From a virus (taxonomy: Duplodnaviria; Caudoviricetes): DNA of 24,381 nt. The stretch lies in IMG/VR virus record IMGVR_UViG_3300025389_000118, positions 1 through 24,381 of that record, one strand, 5' to 3'. The notes beneath the pieces were generated by a model that was not told the DNA's origin, did no database searches, and saw only the letters and a program-made list of their open reading frames with translations. The translations under genes were made by a program, and so were the position numbers. Positions 1,932 to 20,432 of the stretch are shown one piece after another (position 1 is the stretch's first letter; every line of letters starts with the position of its first letter).

Positions 1932-2317
1932 TGCCTAAATGGTTAGACACTACTGGCAACTCAACGATTGCGATCTTTATCTGCGACAGATGCAAGATGA
2001 AGAGACCAATCATAGAGGCGCAACCTGACCCAAATTTCCCTGGGCTAAAGGTGTGTGAGCAAGGGTGTGCCGATCAAAAAGATCCATATCGTTTACCTGC
2101 AAGACCAACTGAAAGGATTGCATTAAGATTTCCACGGCCTGATGTCAGCATTGCAACAGATGACAATGGATTGGTTGTTACGCCTACTGGTACAAATATT
2201 CCTCAAGGTAATCCAACAGAAATTTATATCAGTACTCAAAGCGATAACACAACACCAAGTCAAAACGGCAATATCAACATCATTTCACCTAACCCAACGA
2301 ACAATACATCAACATGA
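1931..2317 (+). CDS. Small virion-associated Zn-finger-like protein
   Basis: CDRC...CEQGC...DP...RPD motif; TAATG coupling to the upstream gene. Confidence 0.75.
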   Translation: MPKWLDTTGNSTIAIFICDRCKMKRPIIEAQPDPNFPGLKVCEQGCADQKDPYRLPARPTERIALRFPRPDVSIATDDNGLVVTPTGTNIPQGNPTEIYISTQSDNTTPSQNGNINIISPNPTNNTST

Positions 2318-5201: not shown

Positions 5202-6848
5202 ATGCCAACACCAATTACTAGAGGTGCAACATCAGCAAAAGCATTTGGATTTACAGGCGGTGTTAAAGCAGGAGTTATTGTTGACGTTGCTTATGTAACA
5301 CCTGGTACATACACTTGGATTGCTCCAGCTTGTATAACTTCAGTTTCTGTTGTTGCCGTAGGCGGAGGTAGCGGTGGATCAGGTGTTTATTGTTGTTCGG
5401 CTTGTTATTATCCTGGTTTTGCTGGTGGCGGTGGTGGTTTAGGTTACAAAAACAATATTTCAGTCACCCCAGGAAATTCTTATACCGTTGTAGTTGGAGC
5501 AGGTGGACAAACTACTTGGGCCGCAACTTGTGGTGGAAATAGTTATTTTTGCTCAACGTCAGTTGTCAAAGGAGGCGCAAGCACTTTTCCAGGAACTGGA
5601 GGAGGACACACTGGTGATGGTGGCGGAAACGGAGGTAATGGGGCAGTAACATCAACTTCATATGCATCAGCTGGTGGTGGGGGAGCAGGAGGTTATTCTG
5701 GAAATGGTGGTATTGGTGCGGCTACTGGTGCGGCTGGCTCAGGTTCAGGAGGTGGTGGTGGTGGTGGTTCTGGTTCTGGTAATGGTGGTGGAGTAGGTAT
5801 ATATGGTCTAGGCAGTAGTGGAGCTGGGGGTTCAAGCACAGGTGCATCAGGAAAAGGTGGCTCTGGTGGTTCTAATGGATGCGTTGGTGCTGGAATTTAT
5901 GGTGGTGGTGGACATGGTCAATATCCCCCTTGTAGCGCCTCAAAAGGCGGAGGCGGTGCAGTCCGAATTGTCGGCCCAGGTTCAACTCGTCAATTCCCAA
6001 GCACTTGCGTAGGAACTACAAAAGGTTCTGCTTTATTTACAACCCCAGGCACTTACACATGGGTTGCTCCTAGCGGTGTGACAAGCGTTAGCGTTGTTGC
6101 TGTTGGTGGTGGCGGTAATGGAGTAAATCAATCTACAGTTTGTTCTGGATGGTGGGCAACTGGAGGTGGTGGTGGTGGTCTTGGATATAAAAATAATATT
6201 ACTGTAGTACCTGGCAACTCTTATACAGTAAAAGTTGTTGGAAGCAATTCTGGAACAGCTAGACCATCTCAAAATATTTCATCATGGTTTTGTGCTCAAA
6301 CAGTTGTAAGCGGATGGTCTTCTCATTCGGCAAGTGGGTGTACAACACTTGGACTTGGAGGATCATATACTGGGGATGGCGGTGGTCGAGGAGGTAATAG
6401 TGGAGGATCACAACTATGTCGTGGTGGAGGGCCAGGTGGAGCTGGAGGATATGGAACAACTCCCAATTCTTCAACAAGTTTCAGCAGTGGTACACAAAAT
6501 GGTGGATCGGGTAGTTCAACATCTGCAAGTGGGTGTAGTGGTTCATGTGGAGGAGCTGGTGGTGTTGGAAAAATTGGAAATTCATCAGGACATTCTGCTG
6601 GTGGTGGCGGCGTAGGATTGTTTGGTCGTGGAACAAGCGGTGCTGGAACTACATACGCAATAGGTGGTGGCGGTGGTAGCGGCGGAGGAAACGGAGGACA
6701 AAACTCTACATGTAATAATGGACTAGGTGGCGCATATGGTGGCGGAGGAGGTTCGACAAGTTCAGGTATTGGTGGTAGTGGCGCAGTGCGAATAATCTGG
6801 CCTGGATCGACCCGTTCATTCCCATCAACTTGCGCTGGCAATCCTTAA
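5202..6848 (+). CDS. Glycine-rich virion protein with two tandem domains, Cys-enriched
   Basis: Two copies of TPGTYTWxAPxxxTSVSVVAVGGG...GGGLGYKNNIxVxPGNSYTV...GAVRIxxPGSTRxFPSTC, a phage Gly-rich domain; about 17 Cys. Confidence 0.85.
   Translation: MPTPITRGATSAKAFGFTGGVKAGVIVDVAYVTPGTYTWIAPACITSVSVVAVGGGSGGSGVYCCSACYYPGFAGGGGGLGYKNNISVTPGNSYTVVVGAGGQTTWAATCGGNSYFCSTSVVKGGASTFPGTGGGHTGDGGGNGGNGAVTSTSYASAGGGGAGGYSGNGGIGAATGAAGSGSGGGGGGGSGSGNGGGVGIYGLGSSGAGGSSTGASGKGGSGGSNGCVGAGIYGGGGHGQYPPCSASKGGGGAVRIVGPGSTRQFPSTCVGTTKGSALFTTPGTYTWVAPSGVTSVSVVAVGGGGNGVNQSTVCSGWWATGGGGGGLGYKNNITVVPGNSYTVKVVGSNSGTARPSQNISSWFCAQTVVSGWSSHSASGCTTLGLGGSYTGDGGGRGGNSGGSQLCRGGGPGGAGGYGTTPNSSTSFSSGTQNGGSGSSTSASGCSGSCGGAGGVGKIGNSSGHSAGGGGVGLFGRGTSGAGTTYAIGGGGGSGGGNGGQNSTCNNGLGGAYGGGGGSTSSGIGGSGAVRIIWPGSTRSFPSTCAGNP
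5292..6845 (+). repeat. Intragenic tandem duplication (two domains of about 240-270 aa)
   Basis: Copy 1 is about 5292-6014 and copy 2 about 6036-6845. The terminal motifs are conserved at protein level and the DNA has diverged. Confidence 0.85.
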
Positions 6849-6861
6849 TTGAGGTAAAAAA

Positions 6862-7266
6862 ATGGCATTATTTATTCAAATTGAAAATGGACAACCTGTA
6901 AACCATCCTGTTTACGATTTCAATCTAATCCAAGCCTATGGACAAATTCCACAAGGTTGGACAATGTTCAATCGTGTTCAACAACCTGAAGGATTGATTA
7001 CAAGCCCATTTCAAACGGCACAATGCACTTATGCTTTGTCATCTGATGGTGTGACTTGGGAAGATGTTTGGACTGCGGTTGAAATGACAGACGCAGAAAA
7101 GTCTGCATTGATTGCAGAACGTCAAGCAAATCCACCTGGTCCCAATGTCACATTGAACACAACAACGCTAGAGTGGACACCTAATACTGCTAAGCCTACT
7201 GATGGTCAAAAGTATTATTGGAATTGGACAACTGGCGAATGGGTTGTGATACCATCAAATCCTTAA
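6862..7266 (+). CDS. Putative tail fibre assembly/partner protein
   Basis: GAGGT SD; follows the Gly-rich gene; W-rich end KPTDGQKYYWNWTTGEWV is typical of fibre-associated small proteins. Confidence 0.7.
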   Translation: MALFIQIENGQPVNHPVYDFNLIQAYGQIPQGWTMFNRVQQPEGLITSPFQTAQCTYALSSDGVTWEDVWTAVEMTDAEKSALIAERQANPPGPNVTLNTTTLEWTPNTAKPTDGQKYYWNWTTGEWVVIPSNP

Positions 7267-7276
7267 GGAGAAAAGC

Positions 7277-7981
7277 ATGGCTAAAGTGAAAAGCAAAAAG
7301 GTTTGTAAAGCCGCACAACAAGTTAAAGAAGTTGTACAAAACACGCAATTACAAGTTGCTTATCACTTTCCGTGTCCTATCTATCTAATTGAGCGTCCTG
7401 ACTTTATTGAATCCATAGCTGAAGTTTCAAACGAATCTTTAGCCAAGCAACACGCTGAACGTAAACTAGATGAAATTTATCCTGTAATGATGAGTGGGTC
7501 ATTTGCTGATGATCCTAGAGTAAAAGCATTTGCTGAGTTTGTTGGTGGTACGGCTTGGAACATTCTTAGTGAGCAGGGTTATGCCATGCAAGATAAAGTG
7601 GTCACATTCACAGAAATGTGGACACAGGAACACCACAAGCATTCCGCAATGGAGCAACACGTTCATGGATTTGGCGCACAGATTGTGGGCTTTTACTTCC
7701 TTGAAGTGCCTGAAAATTCTTCTAGAGTGGTATTTCATGATCCAAGACAGGGTAAAGTAATGTCTAGCTTACCTGAACAAGATATGAATATAGCTACTCC
7801 TGCCAGTCAAATGATTAACTTTGAACCCAAGCCTGGACTTTTAATATTTTCTAATTCTTGGCTACCGCATTCATTTACTCGTCATGCAAATGAAAAGCCA
7901 TTAAAATTTGTTCACTTCAATTTGATTGTAAATTTAGCCCCCCAACCTGTTATACAGGTTACTTCAGCCGAAATTATTTAA
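7277..7981 (+). CDS. 2OG-Fe(II) oxygenase-like protein (TIGR02466 / 2OG-FeII_Oxy_5-like)
   Basis: AAGGAG SD. W...HVH...GFYFL...VFHDPR...PKPGLLIFSNSWLPH...FNL matches the HxH...H jelly-roll pattern of this phage family. Confidence 0.8.
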   Translation: MAKVKSKKVCKAAQQVKEVVQNTQLQVAYHFPCPIYLIERPDFIESIAEVSNESLAKQHAERKLDEIYPVMMSGSFADDPRVKAFAEFVGGTAWNILSEQGYAMQDKVVTFTEMWTQEHHKHSAMEQHVHGFGAQIVGFYFLEVPENSSRVVFHDPRQGKVMSSLPEQDMNIATPASQMINFEPKPGLLIFSNSWLPHSFTRHANEKPLKFVHFNLIVNLAPQPVIQVTSAEII

Positions 7982-7991
7982 AGGAAAAAAC

Positions 7992-8228
7992 ATGAACATT
8001 TCACTACCCTTAATGAACTCAATTCTTCAATACTTAGGCAATCGTCCATATGTTGAAGTAGTTGGTTTTATTGACCAAATCAAAAAAGAAGCATCCATGC
8101 AAAATGTATCTGCAACAAATGTTGCTACAAACACTGCTCCAACTGTTCCAGTTCCTGTGGAACCCATCCCAGAACCCGTTTCAGATACTAGTTTAACTAG
8201 TAGTGAAAACGCAACACCTGCCCAATAA
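7992..8228 (+). CDS. Small hypothetical phage protein
   Basis: AAGGA SD; NSILQYLGNRPYVEV..I..I motif plus a low-complexity tail. Confidence 0.75.
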   Translation: MNISLPLMNSILQYLGNRPYVEVVGFIDQIKKEASMQNVSATNVATNTAPTVPVPVEPIPEPVSDTSLTSSENATPAQ

Positions 8229-8425
8229 TGAGCGGAGATGTTGAAAAGGACTTAGCTGTCCACGAAGCAATTTGCAGTGAAAGATATAACCAAATCTTTC
8301 AGATGTTGAAAGACGGCGACAAGCGCATGACCAAAATAGAGTATTTGCTCTATGGTGTCATGCTCATGGTTCTCCTTGGGCCAGGGGTTGCGGCCCAGTT
8401 CTTTCACAAATTTTTTGGTTTGTAA
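8228..8425 (+). CDS. Small membrane protein (coiled coil plus one TM segment), possible lysis accessory
   Basis: HEAICSERY...RMTKIE followed by hydrophobic LLYGVMLMVLLGPG; TAATG coupling. Confidence 0.75.
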   Translation: MSGDVEKDLAVHEAICSERYNQIFQMLKDGDKRMTKIEYLLYGVMLMVLLGPGVAAQFFHKFFGL

Positions 8426-8494
8426 TGGTAAGTTCATTCTTGTATTGCAAAATTTTAGAGCAGTCGTTTTGGCTGTAATTTTTAAGGATTTAAT

Positions 8495-8761
8495 ATGATC
8501 AACGTGCTTCAATCTCTACAAGATTTCATAGCTAAATTGGGTTTTACTCAAGGTTCTGCTGAACATGATGCGGCTTCTAAATTTGCTGACTTCTTAACTG
8601 AAGAACAACAAAACATTCAAGACGCAATCACATTGCTCACTGATCATGGCTACACAGTCACTCACGATGCTTTGCCAGACGCAGTGGCCGCTCCCGCTGA
8701 TCCTGTTGTTGCCCCCGCAGACTCTACAGCAACTTCTGCTGTAGCACCTGCAACAAATTGA
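8495..8761 (+). CDS. Small acidic hypothetical protein
   Basis: AAGGA SD; Ala/Pro-rich C-terminal tail; followed by a hairpin. Confidence 0.7.
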   Translation: MINVLQSLQDFIAKLGFTQGSAEHDAASKFADFLTEEQQNIQDAITLLTDHGYTVTHDALPDAVAAPADPVVAPADSTATSAVAPATN

Positions 8762-8769
8762 GTTAACCT

Positions 8770-8796
8770 CCCCCACTTAGGTGGGGGTTTAAATTT
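8770..8796 (+). terminator. Putative intrinsic terminator / stem-loop
   Basis: CCCCCAC-TTAG-GTGGGGG is a perfect 7-bp stem, followed by TTTAAATTT, 8 nt after the 8761 stop. The U-tract is short. Confidence 0.55.
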
Positions 8797-8807
8797 AAGG
8801 TGTTGAA

Positions 8808-9524
8808 ATTGATCCGTTTACCCTTGTTGCCCTTGCTTCAGGCGCTTTCAAGCTCTGCAAAGACGCTTGTGAGATGTACAAAGAGGGTAGGCAAATTGTT
8901 GCTGACATCTCCCATGAAGTTGATGGAGTTGTCAAAGACGTTAAGACAGTACAAAAGAAAGCCAAAGGTCTTCTTGGGTTCTTGAGTGCTGTTTTTGGTA
9001 AAAAAGAGGAAGAGCAACCACAAGTTGCTCAACCTGTAAAGAAGGTCAAGAAGAAGAAAGAGCCACCGCCAGAATTTGACGAAAACCTCATTTACCAACA
9101 GGTCAGTGATGCTCTCATCAAGTTCTTTCAAGCGTATAACTCGCTAAAGAATTATGTCAAAGAACAGGAAGAATTTGCTCTCCATGCAAATAACGATGAA
9201 GGCCAAGAAGCTGCGATCAAGATCACGATTGCCAATTTGCAGATGGAGAAATTGAATCAGGAGCTGAGTGATTACATGGTGTACCACGTTCCACATGAAT
9301 TGAAGGACTTGTATACTCGGGTCAATCAGCAAATTGGTCACATTGCCAATGTGCAAGCGCTTGCAAGACGAGAGGAAATGCTAAAGGAGCGTAGAGCAAA
9401 ATGGCAACGGGAGCAAAAGGCGGATCTAATCAAGGGAAGAATGGTGGCTTCAGTAATTACAGTGCTGATGCTAATGTGGGCATGGCTGATGATCGTCAGT
9501 CTGACTCACTCGCCATCTTACTGA
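8808..9524 (+). CDS. Coiled-coil membrane-anchored protein; probable ATT start
   Basis: The ORF track starts at ATG 8874, but the frame is open back to TAA 8796-8798. ATT-GAT-CCG-TTT at 8808 gives (M)DPFTLVALASGAFK with AAGGTG upstream. C-terminal TM segment MVASVITVLMLMWAWLMIV. Confidence 0.7.
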   Translation: MDPFTLVALASGAFKLCKDACEMYKEGRQIVADISHEVDGVVKDVKTVQKKAKGLLGFLSAVFGKKEEEQPQVAQPVKKVKKKKEPPPEFDENLIYQQVSDALIKFFQAYNSLKNYVKEQEEFALHANNDEGQEAAIKITIANLQMEKLNQELSDYMVYHVPHELKDLYTRVNQQIGHIANVQALARREEMLKERRAKWQREQKADLIKGRMVASVITVLMLMWAWLMIVSLTHSPSY

Positions 9525-9643
9525 TCATTGTTTTGTTGATTGTTCTTTTGTTGTTTGTTCCGTTGATCGCTTGGATGTATGTAGACGTCAGACAAATGGA
9601 GATCAGGGTTAACAAGGCCCTACAAAGGATTGAAGGCAAATGA
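9482..9643 (+). CDS. Small single-TM protein (start uncertain; ORF track start is 9401)
   Basis: MADDRQSDSLAILLIIVLLIVLLLFVPLIAWMY followed by a short coiled coil; ATGA overlap with the next gene. Confidence 0.65.
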   Translation: MADDRQSDSLAILLIIVLLIVLLLFVPLIAWMYVDVRQMEIRVNKALQRIEGK

Positions 9644-9900
9644 TTAAAAAATTCAGTTTTGTATACACTTCAATATTGATATGTATACTTTTCCCATTTT
9701 TGTGTACAGGTTGCCATGACCAGTACAGGTATTTTTGCCAAGACCCTGATAATTTCAACAAAGAAATGTGCCAGAAACCCAGATGTGAGTTTGATCAAGA
9801 TTGTCCTGAATATTTAGTAGCACCCATTTTGGAGAAGAAAATTGAAGGAAATCCTCCTAGCGCTCCTCAACAGCCCCAAGGATCGACTGTCTGCCGATGA
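9640..9900 (+). CDS. Small Cys-containing lipoprotein
   Basis: Basic N-terminus, hydrophobic core and lipobox-like CTGC, then YRYFCQDP...CQKPRC....CPEYL. Confidence 0.75.
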   Translation: MIKKFSFVYTSILICILFPFLCTGCHDQYRYFCQDPDNFNKEMCQKPRCEFDQDCPEYLVAPILEKKIEGNPPSAPQQPQGSTVCR

Positions 9901-10297
9901 CATAGAAGTCCGAGTTCGGGCTTTTGTTGTTATTACAGTGACCTTGATTCTGTTCTTTATTGTGGTCACGCTGATCTATAGCGTGATGTTTGTGAGCCAG
10001 CCTATCAAGGCTATGGCGCCCATTGACCAGGCCTTTACCAAGATGCTCAACGACATTGTTTTGTTGATTGTAGGCGGTATTGGAGGCATAATGACCAAAG
10101 GTTTGACCAATGAAGCAACGGCTATGATGAACAATGTCAAGGCTGGCAAGGATGCTTATGTAGCACCCCCACCTGCCCCAGTTGTAATGATGAGCTCGGC
10201 AGGATGGACTCCACCCCCTCCTCCCATGAGCCCCCCTACATTAGAAGCTGACCATGAGCGTGAAAGAATGGCGCAAGCAAGGGCTTCAAATGTTTAA
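9842..10297 (+). CDS. Two-TM membrane protein, holin candidate
   Basis: TTG start with GGAG upstream. Two hydrophobic segments (FVVITVTLILFFIVVTLIYSVMFV and IVLLIVGGIGGIM), Pro-rich tail, directly upstream of the spanins. Confidence 0.6.
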   Translation: MKEILLALLNSPKDRLSADDIEVRVRAFVVITVTLILFFIVVTLIYSVMFVSQPIKAMAPIDQAFTKMLNDIVLLIVGGIGGIMTKGLTNEATAMMNNVKAGKDAYVAPPPAPVVMMSSAGWTPPPPPMSPPTLEADHERERMAQARASNV

Positions 10298-10766
10298 TCC
10301 TTGGTTAATCATCGGCGCAATTTGCGCTATTTTAGGAGCATATTTCTATGGACATCATCAAGGCTATCAAGAGTGCTATCAGGAAGCTGTTGCAAAAGTT
10401 GCAAAAGCCAACGACGAAGCCAGAGCAAAAGAACGAGAGCTGAACGAAAAAGTTAACCAGACTGCATCTGCTTTGAGGAAAGCCAACAATGAAGCTCAAG
10501 TTAAGATTAGCAAGCTCACTGCTGATGTGCAGTCTGGGGCTATGCGCTTGTCAATCCCCGTCACCTCCAATAGTGTATGTTCCGCCAACGCCGCCGGAAC
10601 TGCCGGAGGAGATCAACCTCAAGCTAGAGCCGAACTTGACGGACAGGCTTCTTCAAATCTTATCGCCATCACAGCAGACGGGGACAAAGCCATCCGAGCC
10701 CTCCAAGCCTGCATCACCAGTTACAACCAAGTGAGGGATTCCCTCAAGGAGAAAATAGATGATTAA
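10290..10766 (+). CDS. Rz: Rz-like inner-membrane spanin (i-spanin)
   Basis: N-terminal TM segment (MFNPWLIIGAICAILGAYFYG), coiled coil, MRLSIPV, and C-terminal GDKAIRALQACITSY typical of Rz. ATG 10290 is preferred over 10254. Confidence 0.8.
   Translation: MFNPWLIIGAICAILGAYFYGHHQGYQECYQEAVAKVAKANDEARAKERELNEKVNQTASALRKANNEAQVKISKLTADVQSGAMRLSIPVTSNSVCSANAAGTAGGDQPQARAELDGQASSNLIAITADGDKAIRALQACITSYNQVRDSLKEKIDD
10489..10734 (+). CDS. Rz1: Rz1-like outer-membrane lipoprotein spanin (o-spanin), embedded in Rz in the +1 frame
   Basis: GAGGA SD; signal peptide MKLKLRLASSLLMCSLGLCA|C; Pro-rich mature part QSPSPPIVYVPPTPPELP; fully nested in Rz. Confidence 0.75.
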   Translation: MKLKLRLASSLLMCSLGLCACQSPSPPIVYVPPTPPELPEEINLKLEPNLTDRLLQILSPSQQTGTKPSEPSKPASPVTTK

Positions 10767-11481
10767 GTACGCCATCCCCCTCGCAGTCGTGGCGCTTGTT
10801 GGGTGCTCTTCAACCAGTGATTACCAGAAGTATTCTGAGACTCAAGTAGCGATTGCCCGCTACAAAGCCGAGGCTGATAAAGCCAAGTACCAAGTGCTGG
10901 CTGAAGTGGTCAAGAAAGGCGATCCAACTGCATCTGTAGCCGCTATCATGTCTATGCAAATGGGTATGAATGGTGGCGGTCAAGAGCAAAAGATTGACGC
11001 ACCAAGGAATTCTGGGGATGATGCGCTCAAGTGGGCATCGTTGTTGTTACCCACAGTCGTTCAAGGATTTGGCATCTATGAAAACGCTAAAGTGGCTACC
11101 ACACAGTCTAACAATGCTACAGCGACTGCTATCAATACTAATGGTACGTTTGCTTCAATTGCTAATACTGGGTCTAACAATCAGGCTTCTATGGCAGCTA
11201 ATTCCAATACGGCTTTTGTGAGCATTGCAAATGGCGCATCAACTGCAATCTCAGGTATGGCCAGTAACTCAAATACTGCCTTAACAGGTATGGCTACTAG
11301 CGCCAATACAGCTTTAACAAGCATGGCGTCTACCAATGCTACTAACCTGTCAACTGCTTTGACCAACCAAGCTAGTGCGTATAACACGCTTTTGAGCACT
11401 GATTTAACCACTTTAAACAACGCTGTATCCAAGTTAACCACATCTCCTGTTGTGATTACGAACGGCATTATTCAACATTGA
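10759..11481 (+). CDS. Lipoprotein of unknown function
   Basis: AAGGAG SD; lipobox LVG|C; C-terminal half has imperfect 11-residue A/S/T/N repeats. Confidence 0.8.
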   Translation: MIKYAIPLAVVALVGCSSTSDYQKYSETQVAIARYKAEADKAKYQVLAEVVKKGDPTASVAAIMSMQMGMNGGGQEQKIDAPRNSGDDALKWASLLLPTVVQGFGIYENAKVATTQSNNATATAINTNGTFASIANTGSNNQASMAANSNTAFVSIANGASTAISGMASNSNTALTGMATSANTALTSMASTNATNLSTALTNQASAYNTLLSTDLTTLNNAVSKLTTSPVVITNGIIQH

Positions 11482-11491
11482 GGAGAGCGTC

Positions 11492-12445
11492 ATGGCTATT
11501 TTTGGTTCTGGTCAAAATCAAGTTTACATGGATGAAAACGGTAATGTTGTTCCCAATCCAAATTATTCGATGTCAACAGCACCTCCAAATGCAAGTAATG
11601 TAAACACTGATACAACTGCATCACCTCTTTCTACTTTACTTAATCAGAATCAATTTACAGATAATGCTATTTCCTTGCCACCATCTAATTACTCATCATC
11701 TGATAGTTCTCAATCTATGAGTCCTGCTGGAGGTCAAGTAACAGGATCTAATGTTCCACAAGCAGGTAGTTCATTATCTCCACTATCAAATCCTTCAATA
11801 GTGCCACAAACAGGTAGTTCATTATCTCCACTATCAAATTTATCTGCACAACCACAAGCAGATAGCTCATTATCTGCACAAAATGCTCCTGCACAAAATG
11901 CAATAGACAAACAAAATCAAACTGATGCGGCTAGAAATCTTAAAAGCATGTATAAAATCGACAATCCTGCTCTTGTGAATTACGTTGCATCAACGCCTGG
12001 TTTAACGGGCAGTGACCTTCAAAACCTGCAAAAAACATTTGGTAGCTCAACTGCTCAACAACTTAACGATCTGCAAACAAGTGATAGACCTTCTTTGCAA
12101 GCACAAGCTAATCTAGCCATATTACAACAGCAACAACAAGATTATCAGAAAGCGCATCCAACGCCTCCTTCTCAAATTACGCCCCAACAAACTGGAGACA
12201 ACCCATATTCTTCCTATAAAATTGGTAGTGTTTTTAGCCCCACAGGGCCTGCTAATTATGGAAGATCTGTTGATTCTAGTGGTTATATTCATGAAACAGA
12301 TGCATCGGGCAATACCTACATACTAGACAAATCAGGACACATTATTAACTACACATTAAGTTCTAATGATCCTAGATCTATGGCTTCTAGCAATGCGAGC
12401 GATGCTTATGCTTATCAATTGGCTCAACAGACGGGTGTTTTATGA
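11492..12445 (+). CDS. S/Q/P/N-rich low-complexity hypothetical protein
   Basis: GAGGAG SD; ATGA overlap with the endolysin; contains internal repeats. Confidence 0.75.
   Translation: MAIFGSGQNQVYMDENGNVVPNPNYSMSTAPPNASNVNTDTTASPLSTLLNQNQFTDNAISLPPSNYSSSDSSQSMSPAGGQVTGSNVPQAGSSLSPLSNPSIVPQTGSSLSPLSNLSAQPQADSSLSAQNAPAQNAIDKQNQTDAARNLKSMYKIDNPALVNYVASTPGLTGSDLQNLQKTFGSSTAQQLNDLQTSDRPSLQAQANLAILQQQQQDYQKAHPTPPSQITPQQTGDNPYSSYKIGSVFSPTGPANYGRSVDSSGYIHETDASGNTYILDKSGHIINYTLSSNDPRSMASSNASDAYAYQLAQQTGVL
11756..11875 (+). repeat. Direct repeat with a 48-bp period (about 2.5 copies)
   Basis: ccacaagcaggtagttcattatctccactatcaaat (11756-11791) versus ccacaaacaggtagttcattatctccactatcaaat (11804-11839), one mismatch; a partial third copy starts at 11852. 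Confidence 0.9.
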
Positions 12446-13029
12446 GCCCAGAAAAGTTGCACGCTTTAGGGATTGGATCTGAATGGTCAGAGCCTTTGGT
12501 TACAACTTTTTCTACGTTTGGGATTAACGATGTTAACCGCCAAGCTGCGTTTATTGGACAGTGTTCACACGAGTGCAACCACTTCAAAACATTGGAAGAA
12601 AACCTATCCTACAGTGCCGAGACATTACAAAGACTTTTCCCCCATAAGTTTCAACCCAACGAGTTTGCCCTTTACGCCAAACAGCCGCAAAAGATCGGTA
12701 ACAGGATTTACGCCAACCGTATGGGAAACCGTGACGAGGCTAGTGGAGATGGATTCAAATACCACGGACGCGGTTGTATTCAGCTTACGGGGCACGATAA
12801 TTACTACCATTTTGGTCAGGCGGTAGGCCAGAATTTTGTCCTAGATCCCAACCCAGTGGCGCAACCCTTGTATGCCGCCATGAGCGCAGGATGGTTTTGG
12901 GCTACGCATGGATGCAACAATTTGGTAGATAACGATGAAGCTTTGTGTAAAAGGATCAATGGTGGATTGTTTGGACTTAACGAAAGAATCAGCTTGACCC
13001 AAAAGGCTTTTTCAATATTGAGCGCCTAA
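12442..13029 (+). CDS. Glycoside hydrolase family 19 (chitinase-like) endolysin
   Basis: AAFIGQCSHEC...LEENLSYS...YANRMGN...GDGFKYHGRGCIQLTGHDNY...SAGWFW...INGGLFGLNER. Confidence 0.93.
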   Translation: MSPEKLHALGIGSEWSEPLVTTFSTFGINDVNRQAAFIGQCSHECNHFKTLEENLSYSAETLQRLFPHKFQPNEFALYAKQPQKIGNRIYANRMGNRDEASGDGFKYHGRGCIQLTGHDNYYHFGQAVGQNFVLDPNPVAQPLYAAMSAGWFWATHGCNNLVDNDEALCKRINGGLFGLNERISLTQKAFSILSA

Positions 13030-13037
13030 AAGTGCCC

Positions 13038-13075
13038 TTGTAAAGGATTGACGACGGTGGGAAAATAGCTAAAAC
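13038..13075 (+). promoter_or_regulatory. Possible sigma70-like promoter for the second tail/ejection block
   Basis: In the 58-nt intergenic gap: TTGTAA-17nt-GAAAAT with a TG extension, or TTGACG-16nt-TAAAAC. Both are imperfect. Confidence 0.25.
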
Positions 13076-13087
13076 AATGGGAGAAAT

Positions 13088-13732
13088 ATGGCTACTTACA
13101 CGCCTTCTTGGGTAATGACCTATGACTCGCTGAATGCAATCGTTCTTCAATACTTGGAGCGGTCTGATCAAGCGACGATTAACGCCATCCCTACTTTTAT
13201 CACCCTTGCTGAATTTGAGATTGCCCAAGAGATCAAAACCTTGGGTCAATTACAAATTGTTGAGTCAACGACCATTGCAGGCAACCCAGTGCTTCAAAAG
13301 CCTTCTAGATGGCGTAAAACCGTTTCTATGAACTACACCAATAGCAGTGGTGTACGAACCCCAATTTTGCTTCGTAAGTACGAATATTTGACTAATTATT
13401 GGCCAAATAACACGCTTACTTCGGCGCCCGTTTATTATGCTGATACCAATTGGGATCACTGGTATCTAGCTCCAACACCAGATCAAGCATACACCTTAGA
13501 GGTGCTGTACTACGAGCGCATTCAACCTTTAAGTTCTGACAATCAAACAAATTGGTTGACTCAGAATGCTCCAACAGCAATGTTGTTTGGCACTCTTTTG
13601 CAAGCAATGCCTTTCTTAAAGAACGATCAACGGCAAATTTTCCAACAAAAGTACACCGAGGCTATTCAGTCACTCAAGACTGAAGACACTTCACGTCTTG
13701 GTGATCGTCAATCTGTTGCAATAGATAGCTAA
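13088..13732 (+). CDS. Phage tail adaptor protein (tail tubular protein A-like)
   Basis: GGAG SD; MTYDSL...YLER.D...IPTFITLAE...LAPTPDQAYTLEVLYY...TNWL...LFGTL.QA.PFLK. Confidence 0.8.
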   Translation: MATYTPSWVMTYDSLNAIVLQYLERSDQATINAIPTFITLAEFEIAQEIKTLGQLQIVESTTIAGNPVLQKPSRWRKTVSMNYTNSSGVRTPILLRKYEYLTNYWPNNTLTSAPVYYADTNWDHWYLAPTPDQAYTLEVLYYERIQPLSSDNQTNWLTQNAPTAMLFGTLLQAMPFLKNDQRQIFQQKYTEAIQSLKTEDTSRLGDRQSVAIDS

Positions 13733-13734
13733 TC

Positions 13735-14997
13735 ATGACCTCATACGTTTCACCATACACAGGACAAACGATTAACCCATCACAAGTGGGTTATGAAAAT
13801 CTAACGCTCACAACCACATACACAGCGCTTCAATGGCCTGTCAATGGAAATACGACTTCTGTTGTTGCTAACATCATTGAAGCTACAGCTAACGTAAGCC
13901 CTGCGTATGTTGTTTTACCTCCTGCGACGCAAGTATCAGTCGGTCAAGCATTTATCATCAGAAACATTGGTGCAACAAATGCATTTACGGTTGTTTCTCA
14001 AAACGCCAATCTAACGTACAACACCATTCAAACGGTTCCTACCGCGCCTACAACTGCAACAGTCAACACTTATTACATTTACCTAACTGACAATTCAACT
14101 GTTCAAGGTACATGGTCTACTGTTGCTTTGGGTGTTGGTACTTCAGCCGCCAGTGCCGCCGCGTTGGCAGGACTTGGTTTGTTGCCGCTGAATACTACTT
14201 TGAACACCAATACGCAAGTTGCGTTGGTTTCTTCTGCCTACACCTTCAACTCAACAGATGGATCACAATTGTTTGTATGGACAGGTGGCGCAAGCACAAT
14301 GACATTGCCTGCTGTTGCTAGTGTTCCATCTGGTTGGTATGTAATCATTAAAAATGATGGAACTGGCATATTGAATGTTACAGCCCAAGGTTCAAGCACA
14401 ATTGATACAACAAGCTCAACTGTTCAAATTCAGATAGCTAACTCAAGTGTTTTTGTATCTAATGGAACTAATTGGTATACATATGCTTTGGCTCAAACAA
14501 ACGTATTCAACTATACGCAATTGTATTTGAGTCTAACTGGCGCCGCCGCAACAGTTACTTTGACTGCCGCTCAAGGTAAGAACGTCATCCAACAATATGC
14601 GGGTATTCTTTCTCAGAACACCACGGTCATTTTGCCCCAAACAGTACAACTGTATTCAATCAGAAATACAACTACTGGCTCATATACATTGACTTTCTCT
14701 ACTGGAGTTTCAGGCGGAACAACCTTTACTTTGGGACAAGGACAAGCTGTTCTTTTGGTGTGCGATGGTACTAATGTATTTACTACAACATCAGCAACTA
14801 CAAGCTTTACCAGTAACTTGACTTTAGGTAATGGGTCTTCGGCGGCACCTTCATTAAATTTTAGTGGTGATACAACAACTGGTTTATATCTTGCCGCATC
14901 AGGTCAATTGGGATTTGCAATTGGTGGATCTAGCGCAGGAACATTGACTTCTAGCGGATTGTTGTTGCCTGTTGGTATTCAAGGCGGGACATTCTAA
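13735..14997 (+). CDS. Tail structural / fibre-like protein
   Basis: T/S/A-rich beta modules (LPPATQVSVG..IIRN; TLPAVASVPSGWYVIIKNDG); GSSAAPSLNFSGDTTTGLY fibre motif; ends IQGGTF. Confidence 0.8.
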   Translation: MTSYVSPYTGQTINPSQVGYENLTLTTTYTALQWPVNGNTTSVVANIIEATANVSPAYVVLPPATQVSVGQAFIIRNIGATNAFTVVSQNANLTYNTIQTVPTAPTTATVNTYYIYLTDNSTVQGTWSTVALGVGTSAASAAALAGLGLLPLNTTLNTNTQVALVSSAYTFNSTDGSQLFVWTGGASTMTLPAVASVPSGWYVIIKNDGTGILNVTAQGSSTIDTTSSTVQIQIANSSVFVSNGTNWYTYALAQTNVFNYTQLYLSLTGAAATVTLTAAQGKNVIQQYAGILSQNTTVILPQTVQLYSIRNTTTGSYTLTFSTGVSGGTTFTLGQGQAVLLVCDGTNVFTTTSATTSFTSNLTLGNGSSAAPSLNFSGDTTTGLYLAASGQLGFAIGGSSAGTLTSSGLLLPVGIQGGTF

Positions 14998-17057
14998 TGA
15001 CTGTAAAAGTTGCCGTTCTCCAAGCAGGTGCAGGCATCCAAAGGGATGGAACTGTATTTTCTGCTCCTTCTTATGTAGACGGTCAATGGTGCCGATTCCA
15101 ATATGGTCGTCCTAGAAAAATGGGTGGTTATGAAGGCGCGTTTTTAAATGCTCCTAGCATCAGCCGTGGCATGATCATGCAATCCCAAAGTGGACAAACA
15201 TGGGTTGTATCTGGATTCAATAATAGCATTCAACAATGGACTATTGGTAACAGTGACGCAATTGGATCTGGCCCACAACAAGTATTTGTAATTGGAAGCA
15301 TAACAACTGTAGGAAATACAACTGCAGGATCGGGTTATACGAACGGAACTTATACAAATTTAACGCCAGTAACAGATAGCGGTAATGGTTCTGGAGCCAC
15401 AATAACTGTTGTTGTATCTGGTGGCGCAGTCACAACTTTAACTGTAACCGCAAGTGGATCTGGTTATGGCTATGGAGATACGTTTAGCTTTGCAACATCA
15501 AGTCTAGGTGGTGGATCACCTTCGGTATTGTTTAAAGGAACGATTACATCGGTCACATATGATGGTCTAAATTTAGCTCCTTCAAGCAATTACTATGTGG
15601 CCGATACAAATGCGCTGTGGCAATTTGATACGGGTTTCGATCCGTTTGGGACGGGCAATAATAATTTGATTGCTCACCCTGGCGACAACCTGCAGTACAT
15701 CGACAGCCAAACCAATGTTAGGCCATTGATTGGTACGTTTACAGGTACAAGTTTGACACCTGTAGGCGTTTTTACAGCATCGGGAACGACAACAAACGGA
15801 AGCCCTAACGTTACTTTTGCAACTACAAACATTGCAATGGGTGCGGGTGTATCGGTTTATGGGACGGGTATTCCTGCTAACACCAAGATTGTTTCAGCCA
15901 CCACAACGGGTGGAGTTTGGACGGTTACATTAAATAACAACGCCACTGCTTCAGGCACAGTGACTTTGACCTTTGATAACAACATTGCTGTAAGTGGCGG
16001 TGTTGTAATGCTTTATCCATACCTTTTTGTGTATGGAAATTATGGGTTGATCCAGAACTGTTCAGCAGGCGACTTTAACAATTGGACGTCAGCAGATGCC
16101 AACGCCAATAACGTATCCTCTACAAAGGTCATTAAAGGCATGGCTCTTCGAGGTGGAACAACATCTCCCAGTGGACTGTTTTGGACAACTGATTCTGTTG
16201 TTAGAGTGACTTATTCGCCCCAAACTGTGGGTACATCAACCCTTTATTGGCGTTATGACTTGATTACTCAACAGTCTTCAATCATGTCAAGCCAATGTGT
16301 GATTGAGTATGACGGCATTATCTATTGGGTGGGCGTTGATAGATTCTTGATGTACAACGGTGTTGTATCTGAAGTGCCCAATACACAAAATACCAACTAT
16401 TTCTTTGACAACATTAATATTAATCAAAGACAAAAAGTATGGGCTACAAAGATTCCTCGTTGGGGAGAAATTTGGTTTTTCTATCCACGCGGTAACTCAA
16501 CTGAATGTAACGACGCCATCATTTACAACGTCCGTGAAAAATGTTGGTATGACGCAGGATTAGCAGATGGTGCCGCACGTTCTGCAGGCGTGTTTTCTGA
16601 GGTGTACAGAAAGCCAATTTGGGCGGGTAATGTGGCCAATTCAGTGGGCACTTATACGCTTTGGAACCACGAAGTTGGAACTGATCAAGTCTATTTGAAC
16701 AACGTCAACGCCATCAATTCTTACTTTGAAACCAATGTATTGGGAACTGGTGCAGGATTGGTTGGAGCACCTTCTGGTGGAGATAATCTTTGGACTCGTT
16801 TAGAGCGCGTTGAGCCTGATTTTGTACAGTCTGGACAAATGAGCTTGACCGTCACTGGTAAGGGCTATGCGGACGATACAGACCAAGCTTCGAGCCCTTA
16901 TACATTTGACCCAACAACCCTTAAAATCGACATGAAGGAACAGCGCCGTGAGATGCGTTTGAGGTTCACAAGTAACACTCAAAACGGCAACTATTTCATG
17001 GGCCGAGTTGTATTGAGTGTTGAGACAGGCGACGTTCGCGGAACAGGAAATCCATGA
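14997..17057 (+). CDS. Tail nozzle / tail tubular protein B-like (P22 gp10/T7 gp12-type position), with inserted domains
   Basis: 686 aa; RFQYGRPRKMGGY N-terminus, propeller-like IYWVGVDRFLMYNG and GEIWFFYP...IIYN...WY, C-terminal R..RLRF; located after the adaptor. Confidence 0.75.
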   Translation: MTVKVAVLQAGAGIQRDGTVFSAPSYVDGQWCRFQYGRPRKMGGYEGAFLNAPSISRGMIMQSQSGQTWVVSGFNNSIQQWTIGNSDAIGSGPQQVFVIGSITTVGNTTAGSGYTNGTYTNLTPVTDSGNGSGATITVVVSGGAVTTLTVTASGSGYGYGDTFSFATSSLGGGSPSVLFKGTITSVTYDGLNLAPSSNYYVADTNALWQFDTGFDPFGTGNNNLIAHPGDNLQYIDSQTNVRPLIGTFTGTSLTPVGVFTASGTTTNGSPNVTFATTNIAMGAGVSVYGTGIPANTKIVSATTTGGVWTVTLNNNATASGTVTLTFDNNIAVSGGVVMLYPYLFVYGNYGLIQNCSAGDFNNWTSADANANNVSSTKVIKGMALRGGTTSPSGLFWTTDSVVRVTYSPQTVGTSTLYWRYDLITQQSSIMSSQCVIEYDGIIYWVGVDRFLMYNGVVSEVPNTQNTNYFFDNININQRQKVWATKIPRWGEIWFFYPRGNSTECNDAIIYNVREKCWYDAGLADGAARSAGVFSEVYRKPIWAGNVANSVGTYTLWNHEVGTDQVYLNNVNAINSYFETNVLGTGAGLVGAPSGGDNLWTRLERVEPDFVQSGQMSLTVTGKGYADDTDQASSPYTFDPTTLKIDMKEQRREMRLRFTSNTQNGNYFMGRVVLSVETGDVRGTGNP

Positions 17058-17305
17058 TTTCGTACGATCCTCGCGGAATGACATGGGATCAGTACAATAA
17101 GCTGATGGAAGAGCAGTTTGCGTCCAATCAGCTAGGGCATGTGCCTGAAGAAAATTGGAGAACATGGGTGGACGGCATGAATGGTATTGGTTATTTTGTC
17201 CAATCAGGAATACCAGATCACCGTCCATTTAATCATTGGCAAGATTGGGCAATGGCTATGGCGGGCATCATGTCGATTTCGCCTAACTTGGGGAGCACAT
17301 ATTGA
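17054..17305 (+). CDS. Small W-rich virion-region protein
   Basis: ATGA overlap; W..W...G...PD...F..WQDWA pattern. Confidence 0.75.
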   Translation: MISYDPRGMTWDQYNKLMEEQFASNQLGHVPEENWRTWVDGMNGIGYFVQSGIPDHRPFNHWQDWAMAMAGIMSISPNLGSTY

Positions 17306-17670
17306 AACCGTCCGACGTCATTACAGCCGATTCTCAGAATCGGAACTTAGACCCTAAAAAGGTCATGGGAGCCGCCCAAGTAGCAATCAAAAAGGGCGGC
17401 AAATTATTTCATCACGGTAAAACGTCACTGCTTTTGGAAAAGCTAAGTGATGGCGATTATTCAACTCATTTGTTTACCCAAGATTCTCCAGTTCTATTAG
17501 CTAGAGCTTTGGCTTTGTTTTTTAGAAAGATGGAGAAGAGTGACATTCGCATCATTTATGGTGATGCCACTGGGCCTATGCTTAATTTGCTCAGACGAGT
17601 AGCAAGACAAGTTGGTGCTCCTATCAAGGATTCTGACCGTCATGGTTTTACATGGATGATTAAATTATGA
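17302..17670 (+). CDS. Hypothetical protein between the nozzle and ejection genes
   Basis: TTG start overlapping the upstream TGA, with GGGAG SD. The position resembles T7 gp13/P22 gp14 assembly factors (inference only). Confidence 0.65.
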   Translation: MKPSDVITADSQNRNLDPKKVMGAAQVAIKKGGKLFHHGKTSLLLEKLSDGDYSTHLFTQDSPVLLARALALFFRKMEKSDIRIIYGDATGPMLNLLRRVARQVGAPIKDSDRHGFTWMIKL

Positions 17671-19256
17671 GCAATTATTCAGGCTTTGGCGGCTTACAAA
17701 CACAAAACACTGGTGCTCAACTTCATTCACCGAATATTGAGCCAAATGACATTTTGCCTTGCGGACAAGCAACGCCACACTATGGTGGTGGTGGTAGTTT
17801 ACTGAGTGCGGCTCTTGATATTGCTACTGACGGTGCCAGTAGTTTTTTATGCGTATTTGAAGATGCGGCTTGTGCAATCTGTGCAATTTGCGCAATTGAT
17901 AGTTCCGCATGTGTCATTTGTTCTGCATCATGTGTTGCGTGTTCTCTTTCTTGTGCAAGTTGTGCATGCTGTTCTACCTGTTGCACTAGTTGCTGTTCTT
18001 GCACATCTTGCTCTTGTTGCACAAGTTGCTGTGCATGCTCATGTTGTGCTTGTTCATGCTGTGCATGTACTTGTTGTACAAATTGCTGTGGATGTTGCGC
18101 ATGTGACTGCTGTGCATGTTGCGCATGTTGCACTTCTTGCTGTACCTGCTGTACTTGCTGTACTTGCTGTGCTTGCTGTACTGATTGTTGCACTTGCTGT
18201 ACATGTTGTTGCTGTACATGCGACTGCTGTGCTTGCTGTTGCGCTTGTGATTGTTGTGCTTGTTGTTGCGTTTGCGACTGCTGTGACACATGTTGCTGTG
18301 CTTGCTGTTGCTGTTGTTCTTCCAAAAGCAAGGGCCACAAAGGTGGCAAATGCAATAAGGGCGGCAACAAATGCACTAGCAAAGGCTGTAAAACAGGTTC
18401 TGGCGGTGCAGGTGGAGGTGGCGGCCAAGGTGGCTTATGCGGTCAAGCTTCAGCATTAGTTGGACACGGTGGCAATTACGGAATTGACACTGAAAAAGGC
18501 TTAACTCAAATGGGTGGTGGTTTGGGTGCAAACCCCAATATGGGTATGGGTGAAGGAGAAATGCTTGCTAAAGGTGGTCTTGCTAACTTTGCCAAAGGTG
18601 GATCAAGCAAAGATTGCTGTACTGATTGTAAATGTTGGGTGAAGACATTGAACAAGGGTTTGAAATGTGCTGAACCTGATTTCAAGTGTTCTGCATGCAC
18701 CATGCTGAGAAGCCAAACCAATGCAAATTTGGGCAATATTACTCTGCACTCTTTGAGACAGATGAAGTGTGGAATCACGGGTAGTGCTGAAGGTGGATTA
18801 GCGCATGCCTATAAGGCGGCGGCTCCTAAAGGGCACAATCCTGAGTTCATCACTGGCGTGACAGGCTACTACGCTTGTGGTGGCGGTACAGGCCAATCTG
18901 ACGACATTCCTGCGATGCTTCATGACGGTGACTACGTTATGGATGCTGAAACCGTATCGGCTCTTGGAGACGGTTCTAGCAAGGCGGGCATGCATGTCTT
19001 GGAAGGCTTCCGTAAACAGCTACCACACAAAGAAACAGTTGGGTCTAATCCTGTGCCTGCAAAGATCGCTGATGGGGAGTATGTTTTCCCTGCGGCGTTT
19101 GTCACGGCACTAGGAGGAGGGGATAATAAGAAAGGTTCAGAAATTCTTGATGGATTGCGTAAGAAATTACGAGATCACAAGCGTTCTGCACCTTTGGATT
19201 CAATCCCACCAAAGGCAAAGACCCCAATTGACTACATCAAAAAGGGAAAGAAATAA
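17667..19256 (+). CDS. Putative internal virion/ejection protein with an extreme poly-cysteine tract and a duplicated SDDIPAML..GDYV-type domain
   Basis: One ORF coupled at both ends (ATGA; TAAATG). About 83 Cys in residues 62-217. C-terminal GTGQSDDIPAMLHDGDYVMDAETVSALGDGS and VPAKIADGEYVFPAAFVTALGGG. Confidence 0.8.
   Translation: MSNYSGFGGLQTQNTGAQLHSPNIEPNDILPCGQATPHYGGGGSLLSAALDIATDGASSFLCVFEDAACAICAICAIDSSACVICSASCVACSLSCASCACCSTCCTSCCSCTSCSCCTSCCACSCCACSCCACTCCTNCCGCCACDCCACCACCTSCCTCCTCCTCCACCTDCCTCCTCCCCTCDCCACCCACDCCACCCVCDCCDTCCCACCCCCSSKSKGHKGGKCNKGGNKCTSKGCKTGSGGAGGGGGQGGLCGQASALVGHGGNYGIDTEKGLTQMGGGLGANPNMGMGEGEMLAKGGLANFAKGGSSKDCCTDCKCWVKTLNKGLKCAEPDFKCSACTMLRSQTNANLGNITLHSLRQMKCGITGSAEGGLAHAYKAAAPKGHNPEFITGVTGYYACGGGTGQSDDIPAMLHDGDYVMDAETVSALGDGSSKAGMHVLEGFRKQLPHKETVGSNPVPAKIADGEYVFPAAFVTALGGGDNKKGSEILDGLRKKLRDHKRSAPLDSIPPKAKTPIDYIKKGKK
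17850..18317 (+). repeat. Low-complexity (TGY)n-based coding repeat (Cys-rich tract)
   Basis: Imperfect TGC/TGT codon arrays interspersed with GCN/ACN/TCN/GAY codons. Confidence 0.9.
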
Positions 19257-20432
19257 ATGGCTAACTTACTCCAATCATCCCAAACAAAGTCAACGTGCGC
19301 ACCTTCGTACTACACGAACTACCTTCAACAGTTAGCAACGTGTGGTCAAGCGGCTGAGAAATGCGCTCAGTTTGTAGGTGCCACGCCTTTACAGCAACAG
19401 GCTTTTTGTAGTATTTCTCAAACTGCAGGAGCACAACAGCCCACGTTCCAAACTGGAATGGGTTACATTGGTTGCGCGGCTCAGTCAGGCAGTAAGATCG
19501 GTGCGACGGTTAATCCTTATTTGAGTGCGGCAACTAATGCAAGCCCACTTTGTGCGGCTAAACCATTAATTTGCCAATCACGCGGTTTGAATTTGGGACA
19601 AGTGGCTCAATGCTACATGAACCCATTCATTCAAAATCAAGTGCAGAATATGTCTGACATTGCTCAGAGAAATATTCAGCAGAACTTATCTCCACAAGCC
19701 ACAGCAGCCATTGTGGGTTCAGGTCAGTTTGGTTCACAGCGTGGCGCTCAAGCTTTGGGTCAAGTTGCGGCGAATGCAGAGCAATGTCTTAGCGCAAACA
19801 TTGGCAAGATGTTGACCTGTGGATATGGCCAAGCACTAAGTGCGGCAGGTCAAAAAGAGAGCGCATTGGGTCAATTGGCAGGAACTACAGAGCAAGCACA
19901 AGCGGCTCAGAATCAAGCTCAATTGCAAGCGGCACAAACTGCGGCATGCGCACAGTCAAGGCAAGCGGCGGCACAGCAAGCGGCAGGTCTTGGCATGGGT
20001 ACGTTGGGTACTCAAGCGGCCGCTCAAAATTTAGCATGTATCAATGCTTTGGCTACGTTAGGCGCTCAGTGCCAACAGATCAAACAGAATGCTCAATGCT
20101 ACGACTTCACAAAACTAGCAAAAGAAGCCAGTTTGATGCAAGGACAAGCCATTCCCACATCGGTTAAGACAACCCTGTGCATGTCGCCTTTATCTGCGCT
20201 AGGCGCGGCGGGTGCGGCGGCGAAAGCATCTGGATTAACATGTTATCTCAGTAAAAAATTAGGATGTGTTTTTAAAGGTGCATCATGTACTAAATGTTGT
20301 GGAAGTGCTGTGAACATGTGTAATTACAGCATGGGATGCGCATCAGGTGGTTTAGTTAAAGCACGATCAGGAGGAGCGATAGGTTGTGCGTCAACTCGTA
20401 ATCTTGGCGCGTTGCCTGCAAGGAGAAAATAA
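19257..20432 (+). CDS. Putative DNA-ejection (internal virion) protein, Q/A-rich and Cys-enriched
   Basis: YMNPF...GQFGSQRG and Q/A-rich helices are typical of podovirus DNA-transfer proteins; about 23 Cys. Confidence 0.7.
   Translation: MANLLQSSQTKSTCAPSYYTNYLQQLATCGQAAEKCAQFVGATPLQQQAFCSISQTAGAQQPTFQTGMGYIGCAAQSGSKIGATVNPYLSAATNASPLCAAKPLICQSRGLNLGQVAQCYMNPFIQNQVQNMSDIAQRNIQQNLSPQATAAIVGSGQFGSQRGAQALGQVAANAEQCLSANIGKMLTCGYGQALSAAGQKESALGQLAGTTEQAQAAQNQAQLQAAQTAACAQSRQAAAQQAAGLGMGTLGTQAAAQNLACINALATLGAQCQQIKQNAQCYDFTKLAKEASLMQGQAIPTSVKTTLCMSPLSALGAAGAAAKASGLTCYLSKKLGCVFKGASCTKCCGSAVNMCNYSMGCASGGLVKARSGGAIGCASTRNLGALPARRK

Follow-up and report, generated by a model that had tools for sequence, protein, structure and literature searches.

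Why would a phage load a few of its structural proteins with cysteine (Cys)? The question is raised by positions 1 to 24,381 of IMG/VR virus record IMGVR_UViG_3300025389_000118 (Duplodnaviria; Caudoviricetes), a linear record, 44% complete, stretches of which are found in freshwater metagenomes; this 24,381-nucleotide stretch is referred to below as the window. Three of its genes, all on the plus strand, encode proteins rich in Cys: a Gly-rich protein that is likely tail-fiber associated (5202-6848) and two putative internal or ejection proteins, E1 (17667-19256) and E2 (19257-20432). In many aquatic phages, a small number of proteins that probably belong to the virion have had acidic and polar residues replaced by Cys, and this occurs almost only where the gene for an unusual iron enzyme is also present. 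In the window this gene is 7277-7981 (plus strand), which encodes a TIGR02466-like non-haem iron enzyme and putative peptidyl-Cys oxidase. We predict, with a probability of roughly 55%, that this enzyme makes sulfinate or sulfonate on internal Cys residues.

Counted from ATG starts, the Gly-rich protein contains 17 Cys in 548 residues, E1 97 in 529 and E2 23 in 391, as a preliminary description of this DNA had stated. Against a generous background of 1% Cys, the binomial tails are 5e-5, 2e-88 and 2e-11, respectively, and the 16 other window genes that were counted have a mean of 0.37% Cys. The neighboring genes had been described as Cys-free. A recount found no Cys in the six that were named (858-1931, 2314-4398, 4398-5192, 13088-13732, 20432-22318 and 22315-23532), but the statement does not extend to the whole window, in which the genes beginning at 14997, 12442 and 1931 hold 5, 5 and 4 Cys. 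Both Cys codons are present, TGT and TGC being used 13 and 4 times in the Gly-rich gene, 57 and 40 times in E1 and 13 and 10 times in E2. An assembly artefact was ruled out, as one contig of the independent run X4 agrees with 17300-18739 at 0 differences and a second with 18817-20600 at 4. Independent IMG/VR contigs carry Cys tracts that are the same or longer. The Cys residues of E2 are dispersed, with one CC and one CxxC, which agrees with the earlier remark that they are scattered singly and not in metal motifs. In E1, 83 of the 97 lie within residues 60-220, and a hypervariable Cys tract may be delimited at 17850-18317 (residues 62-217; plus strand). Cys-loading is a real, selected, multi-gene feature.

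Is this Cys ancestral? Relatives of the window were collected with two anchors, first the Cys-neutral gene 14997-17057, for which 80 of 126 loci were retained, and then an E2 alignment (80 of 459 and 80 of 370 loci), the latter sets being ranked by likeness to the window, a sampling in which Cys-rich forms are over-represented. These yielded 141 complete distinct E2 sequences, of which 110 were kept at 90% identity. Their distribution is bimodal: 52 have no Cys, 58 have 7 to 41, and none has 1 to 6. D, E, Q, N, S and T stand opposite the Cys in the Cys-free orthologues, so that the Cys is not ancestral. Asp is enriched 6.7-fold and Glu 3.6-fold at these positions, Gln, Asn, Ser and Thr are enriched 1.1- to 1.4-fold, and Tyr, Ile, Phe and Trp are found at 0.06-fold or less. 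The proposal that Cys had replaced ordinary polar residues therefore stands in part, as Gln, Asn, Ser and Thr are among the residues replaced, but in E2 it is the acids that are most enriched. The Cys content of E1 follows that of E2 (Spearman 0.93 over 85 pairs and 0.76 within the 45 Cys-rich ones) and is graded: 23 of the 45 members of the rich class have fewer than 10 Cys, 34 of the 40 members of the free class have none, and the tract ranges among relatives from 1 to more than 100 Cys. E3 and E4 (20432-23532, plus strand) lie in the same operon and serve as Cys-free internal controls, with 0-2 Cys per listed locus; the mean for E3 is 0.0% in both E2 classes. The best tree of the 14997 orthologue, built from 90 rows, has 9 changes of Cys state, of which at least 5 fall on well-supported branches.

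These substitutions bear on the idea that TGY codons have been recoded, for example to Asp, or have accumulated through mutational bias. Recoding would agree with Asp being the residue most enriched opposite Cys in E2, but E3 and E4 are rich in Asp and Glu and contain no TGY codon, and no Cys-anticodon tRNA was found in the 37 loci scanned. As for mutational bias, D, N, Q and E are at least two base changes from Cys, and the one-step residues Y, F, W and R are depleted. We consider either version hardly credible.

The charge of these proteins is more informative. The E2 core has a nominal net charge per 100 residues of +1.78 in the Cys-rich class and -0.82 in the Cys-free class; when each Cys is counted as -1, the rich class falls to -1.52. 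For 108 Gly-rich domains the corresponding values are +2.68 (66 rich), +0.04 (22 poor) and, with Cys as -1, -0.47. The net charge gained per Cys is 0.79±0.04 in E2 and 0.89±0.05 in the Gly-rich family. Phylogenetic contrasts, on trees for which C, D, E, K and R were masked, gave slopes of 0.72 (46 up, 12 down) and 0.85 (80 up, 25 down), respectively. None of the other residues tested had a comparable positive charge slope, and the adaptor, 13088, 13735, the stabilization protein, E3, the capsid and the portal did not differ significantly in charge from one class to the other (p 0.07-0.90). To judge from these sequences, evolution treats each Cys as an anion, and the modified Cys product is probably anionic.

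The preliminary description had suggested crosslinking or metal coating as the shared chemistry. Disulfides that stabilize the virion core or the fiber would suit the Cys density of E1, but crosslinks predict no charge compensation and hence a slope of 0, where we find 0.8-0.9; the charge balance therefore argues against them. In addition, the positions vary, with Cys present in 69 E2 alignment columns, and odd and even Cys counts are nearly equal (31 and 27 of the 58 Cys-rich E2). We judge disulfides to be very improbable. Metal coating fares somewhat better. The Cys might undergo no covalent change and hold Zn, Cu or Fe as thiolates, as in metallothioneins, with the His-rich protein loading the metal or guarding the thiols. 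Thiolates are anionic, the E1 tract resembles metallothioneins in being of low complexity and dense in CC and CxC, and it is not charge-compensated. Unlike metallothioneins, this tract is part of a 529-residue protein, and there are no such clusters in E2 or the Gly-rich protein, where the Cys are single, dispersed and at former Asp, Gln or Asn sites. Moreover, Zn(Cys)4 would carry a calculated charge of about 0.5 per Cys, which is less than the measured 0.79 and 0.89. The charge balance thus argues that an anionic product fits better than a metal coat, and thiolate binding is improbable as a general explanation, although it may hold for the E1 tract alone, which would be a polyanion if oxidized and a metal-thiolate tract if not.

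What accompanies Cys-loading? To the window we added MW202545 and 29 of 36 contigs, giving 15 Cys-rich and 16 Cys-free genomes. In a scan of gene clusters across these 31 genomes, the family of 7277-7981 was the most associated, being present in 13 of the 15 rich and 1 of the 16 free genomes (Fisher 7e-6, uncorrected for kinship). A 77-aa gene next to that of the enzyme was second (9 of 15 versus 0 of 16). Only the enzyme and this small gene stood out, and no transferase co-occurred. A six-frame search raised the figures for the enzyme to 14 of 15 versus 1 of 16. The sole Cys-rich genome without it, G008, is a contig whose first bases already lie within the 77-aa gene, which in other genomes comes after the enzyme; the sole Cys-free carrier, G022, has a Gly-rich gene with 15 Cys two genes 5' of the enzyme. 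Among 50 further partial contigs, the enzyme was found in 11 of 27 that are Cys-rich and in 0 of 23 others (22 Cys-free and one unscored). The suspicion that a dedicated enzyme gene accompanies Cys-loading was thus borne out at the level of genomes, partial contigs and, as described next, Gly-rich loci; it is very likely that enzyme and Cys-loading are linked.

The Gly-rich proteins provide a second family in which to look for this link. In 80 enzyme-anchored loci, a Gly-rich gene lies no more than 4 open reading frames (ORFs) upstream in 73, and in 66 of these 73 it has at least 1.5% Cys. A set anchored on the Gly-rich proteins themselves comprised 72 loci, of which 20 were set aside: 6 were incomplete, 9 had too little sequence downstream and 5 were duplicates. 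The query alignment was made from enzyme-adjacent proteins, a choice that makes the enzyme likelier to be found but has no bearing on how much Cys the other proteins contain. At least 1.5% Cys was present in 26 of 30 loci with the enzyme compared with 2 of 22 without it, with medians of 2.6% and 0.7%. When 31 contigs with Gly-rich genes were checked over their whole length, the enzyme turned up in 3, of which L466 (8 Cys) was new; none of the 5 complete records had it. The association extends to the Pelagibacter phages HTVC023P (gp66) and HTVC033P (gp60), in which Gly-rich genes, each with 6-11 Cys, are closely followed downstream by a gene for an enzyme of the FIHWN form; Cys is absent from the late internal-protein genes of both phages. 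In the cyanomyoviruses P-RSM6 and S-CREM1 the enzyme matches retain RISISFN, and the Gly-rich genes close by contain 0-3 Cys. Both pelagiphages also carry, among their structural genes, the PurM-like-annotated gene of HTVC023P or a lookalike (L467:17432-18076 and L468:13981-14637).

The three Cys-loaded genes had been taken as one co-varying set. E1 and E2 do co-vary, as noted above, but 5202-6848 stands apart. G022 combines a Cys-rich Gly-rich protein with Cys-free orthologues of E1 and E2, and most Cys-rich genomes are without a Cys-rich Gly-rich protein. The genes therefore constitute two modules, one consisting of 5202-6848 and the adjacent enzyme, the other of E1 and E2 together with a second enzyme clade encoded elsewhere. 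Indeed the enzymes fall into two clades, A beside Gly-rich genes, which includes the window copy, and B in the early region of phages with Cys-rich E2. The near-identical window relatives G013 and G068 have a clade B copy about 5 kb past the point where the window ends, that of G068 being 40% identical to the window's own enzyme. The 77-aa gene, which belongs to no Pfam family, is usually directly 3' of the enzyme in both clades; it was not found in the window, which is 44% complete. Another relative, G012 (L274:205-921), has Cys-rich E1 and E2, but its sole enzyme is of clade A, lies next to a Gly-rich gene poor in Cys and is far from the 77-aa gene; from this case the two clades may be interchangeable.

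What sort of enzyme is encoded by 7277-7981? It matches PF13759 (E 1.4e-10; 41.8 bits, over the cut-off of 27), which was alone in a Pfam scan at E 0.01, without CDO_I (PF05995), and it scores 52.9 bits against TIGR02466, under the cut-off of 62.5. The key residues are Q117, H128, H130, H198, H213 and N215. H128-x-H130...H198 is invariant in 38 sequences and differs from the canonical HxD/E...H triad. The enzyme shares this HxH...H motif and a double-stranded beta-helix fold with 3bvc and 2rg4, and in alignment with these structures the canonical Arg-x-Ser is replaced by L209-x-F211. Among 127 scorable representatives, 0 have Arg at 209 and 126 have His213; Lys or Arg is common at 210. The family has xx[KR]F[VI]H[FMW]N in place of RISVSFN, with Gln fixed at 117, and the subfamily comprises at least 123 clusters at 50% identity (E up to 1e-30). 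A cassette of enzyme and 77-aa gene is also present in a contig of 137 kb that looks bacterial and was binned as Burkholderiales (L491:8004-8956), where it adjoins a gene that reads as cytochrome c peroxidase-like and a large adhesin-like gene.

The E2 tail (20340-20432, plus strand) is a candidate recognition, or follower, sequence for clade B enzymes. It consists of an AxGG-type motif followed by GCxSxxxxG[GA]LP, and in the window's relatives it is confined to Cys-loaded E2. The latter motif, with invariant G, C, G and L, ends 55 of 58 Cys-rich and 0 of 52 Cys-free E2, and the former is found in the last 60 residues of 49 and 0, respectively. For a complex of the tail, a clade B enzyme and the small protein, the predicted score is 0.56 compared with 0.00 for the best control. 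This is weak: of 157 solved pairs 116 reached this mark, as did 2 of the 215 mismatched pairs, and at 0.60 or below there were only 18 solved pairs and both mismatches; the runs agree in at least 0% of contacts, and the partner's predicted local distance difference test score is at least 32. Related motifs occur elsewhere. An internal copy of GCASTxxxG[GA]LP is found in the E1 of MW202545 (L083:20074-21993) and of G008 (L266:961-2874). The AxGG/KxGG motif is repeated in small basic ORFs (1-848), in E1 and in the E2 tail and may be a protease site or a packaging signal; in one of the E1 copies the middle residue is Cys in 34 of 45 Cys-rich phages.

Comparison with known systems suggests an enzyme that works like a thiol dioxygenase and like an enzyme-partner-tag system of ribosomally made peptides that are modified after translation (RiPPs), and that would belong to neither, nor to the canonical Fe(II)/2-oxoglutarate (2OG) oxygenases. 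Protein prolyl hydroxylases (PHD2, P4H and the viral vCPH) have HxD...H and an Arg or Lys that binds 2OG, and the present enzyme has neither. It likewise departs from canonical Fe(II)/2OG oxygenases, in which HxD/E...H is joined by Arg-x-Ser/Thr, and from the TIGR02466/PF13759 oxygenases of 3bvc, 2rg4 and the cyanophage arrays in having no RISVSFN and in its fixed Gln117. Three-His iron sites have been described as a hallmark of thiol dioxygenases (PMC13194613). Like CDO/MDO and ADO/PCO, the enzyme appears from its motif to have such a site and to be without the 2OG-binding Arg, and its product would be Cys sulfinate on protein (PMC13194613). Unlike CDO, ADO and PCO, it falls in PF13759 rather than PF05995, its best fold matches are in the 2OG clan, its targets would be many internal Cys of structural proteins instead of free or N-terminal ones, and its role would be structural rather than oxygen sensing. 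It would work like MbnBC, TglHI and ChrHI in having a putative partner encoded by a small gene, substrates with several Cys and a candidate sequence for recognition at one terminus. It differs from these in not being a DUF692 or TIM-barrel protein, as Pfam and fold give a beta-helix enzyme, and its substrates would be phage proteins of 250-900 residues with an acid rather than a heterocycle as product (PMC10989515).

These likenesses also leave room for the enzyme to modify Cys to some other product, such as a different anionic adduct, a RiPP-type backbone rearrangement or a first oxidation that is finished by a host enzyme. The same co-occurrence with Cys would be expected, the fold is in a peptide-modifying 2OG clan, and an enzyme with a small partner gene recalls MbnBC (PMC10989515). 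However, no transferase co-occurs in the 31-genome scan, and neutral heterocycles would not yield a slope of 0.8-0.9. Such a product is, in our estimation, rather unlikely.

We therefore favor the formation of sulfinate or sulfonate and suggest the following sequence of events. The enzyme would bind iron through H128, H130 and H198 and use O2 without 2OG, an independence suggested by the loss of the binding Arg. Acting before or during assembly, and guided by a tail in RiPP-like fashion, it would convert internal Cys into sulfinate or sulfonate. The substrate of clade A copies would be the Gly-rich fiber protein encoded next to them, and clade B copies, together with the 77-aa partner, would act on E2 and E1 after recognizing the GCxSxxxxG[GA]LP tail. 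Oxidation would keep the net charge of E2 and the fiber protein the same and would turn the E1 tract into a polyanion. The weakest step concerns purpose, which may be to provide an acid that is charged at low pH and that is unlike a carboxylate for metals and proteases. In its fullest form, which we offer tentatively and with somewhat less assurance than the oxidation itself, the proposal is that abundant freshwater and marine phages encode a RiPP-like, 2OG-independent four-His enzyme that in effect adds one amino acid to their repertoire: in tagged virion proteins, internal Cys would be turned by the tens into sulfinate or sulfonate, Cys codons would be selected as acids, and the E1 tract would be a polyanion that is injected and possibly mimics nucleic acid so as to titrate host defense proteins.

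Several observations weigh against enzymatic oxidation of Cys to an acid. Some concern the substrates. Most residues replaced by Cys in E2 are neutral (Q, N, T and S), in the Gly-rich family Asn (2.7-fold) exceeds Asp (2.1-fold) opposite Cys, and the N-terminal part of E1 is barely charge-compensated (slope 0.14). A G[GA]LP motif is present in Cys-free E1 as well, and the E2 tail may be a packaging or cleavage signal. Others concern the enzyme. Its best fold matches are 2OG prolyl-hydroxylase-like, the best 50 matches listed being 2OG-clan chains, and HxH...H is shared by canonical TIGR02466 proteins that retain RxS, so that three His alone are no marker of thiol chemistry. Peptide thiol dioxygenases are described as acting on N-terminal Cys (PMC13194613). 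The remainder concern the association. The enzyme is found beside Cys-poor Gly-rich proteins (L447, 0 Cys in 259 residues; L452, 1 in 267), Cys is found where no enzyme was detected (L443, 10 in 565, and L428, 9 in 353, both partial contigs; L414, 5 in 327, complete), and the fetched flanks of the L491 cassette contain no Cys-rich neighbor. Sixteen of the 27 Cys-rich partial contigs have no enzyme match, although at 21-48% completeness such absences prove little. Finally, there are 4 independent pairs on a tail-gene tree (3.8 concordant, 0 opposite, p 0.125) and 1 on a helicase tree, and the genome-level co-occurrence rests on few independent events.

This last point raises the prospect that enzyme and Cys-loading are unlinked marks of lineage or habitat, with Cys serving, for instance, to scavenge oxidants at its own expense in humic water exposed to sunlight. 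On trees the trait forms clusters, and independent pairs are few at the genome level. On the other hand, the link recurs in an unrelated protein family across many phage types and in marine pelagiphages, these genomes show no change in their other virion proteins, and the canonical RxS paralogues of P-RSM6 and S-CREM1 lie beside Cys-poor Gly-rich genes. An unlinked association of this kind is quite improbable.

The assignment of the virion genes is based on their context. The window is inferred to derive from a podovirus-like phage, with E1 to E4 as internal or ejection proteins, because of gene order and the annotated relative MW202545. An SU10-type adaptor, the tail and the stabilization protein are followed by E1-E4, a run of three or four genes 3' of the tail stabilization gene as in podoviral ejection sets, a placement like that of the P22 ejection proteins gp7, gp20 and gp16; in MW202545 the set closes with a gene annotated as an SLT transglycosylase. 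Searches by sequence and by structure yielded no significant match to an ejection protein for the E genes, the PDB sequence search giving none below E 0.3, and the Atlas lead for E2, P22_gp7, scored 0.83, under the usable mark. For E1, gene order is joined by orthologue counts and a weak phrog_6090 match, and the protein ends in a conserved DDIPAML domain. E2 is Q/A-rich with a nominal net charge of +18. The Gly-rich protein, at +16, contains two Gly_rich_2-type FPST repeats; it matches PF21722 (Gly_rich_2; E 3e-11, 44.1 bits, over the cut-off of 24.3), phrog_4474 over two stretches and the profile of the Gly-rich alignment. Between it and the enzyme lies a 134-aa gene (6862-7266, plus strand) that found no match in Pfam and PHROG searches; a gene of about 130-180 residues occupies this place in most related cassettes of the 80 enzyme-anchored loci.

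Other features were noted in passing. E3 (20432-22318) has an inserted VanY/M15-like peptidase stretch at residues ~236-329, with weak matches, a candidate cell-wall hydrolase for DNA entry. Acyl-carrier-like and FabB-like genes just 5' of E1 in MW202545 (L083:22437-23815) and in 4 of 30 other genomes may lipidate an internal protein and show no tie to Cys-loading (4 of 15 rich versus 1 of 16 free). The helicase of G006 (L256:8705-11056) has 783 residues compared with ~509 in relatives, with an intein-like insertion, and three small ORFs at the left end of the window (1-848) terminate in CW or CPGW.

The literature that was searched, which included few subscription journals and no supplements, contained nothing linking this enzyme to virion Cys, and no Cys-loaded podoviral ejection protein is known from it. 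Phage "2OG-Fe(II) oxygenases" rank with the most frequent genes of aquatic phages that lack an explanation, and as a rule they are classed as auxiliary metabolic genes. They are so treated in HTVC023P-type phages in a study whose main text does not contain the word cysteine (PMC9599517), and a sea-ice virome study cites DNA repair as a suggested role (PMC13436968). For one large oxygenase subfamily a substrate class and a predicted mass shift can now be named, and the same arrangement in cultured SAR11 phages makes the question testable at once. If our interpretation is true, it would represent a new post-translational chemistry, the mass oxidation of internal Cys to acids, and could provide a tag-directed tool for sulfinylated or sulfonylated proteins. 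In these phages the sequence would no longer reveal the charge of the virion surface, and a virus would be altering the chemistry of its own particle in a manner not described before.

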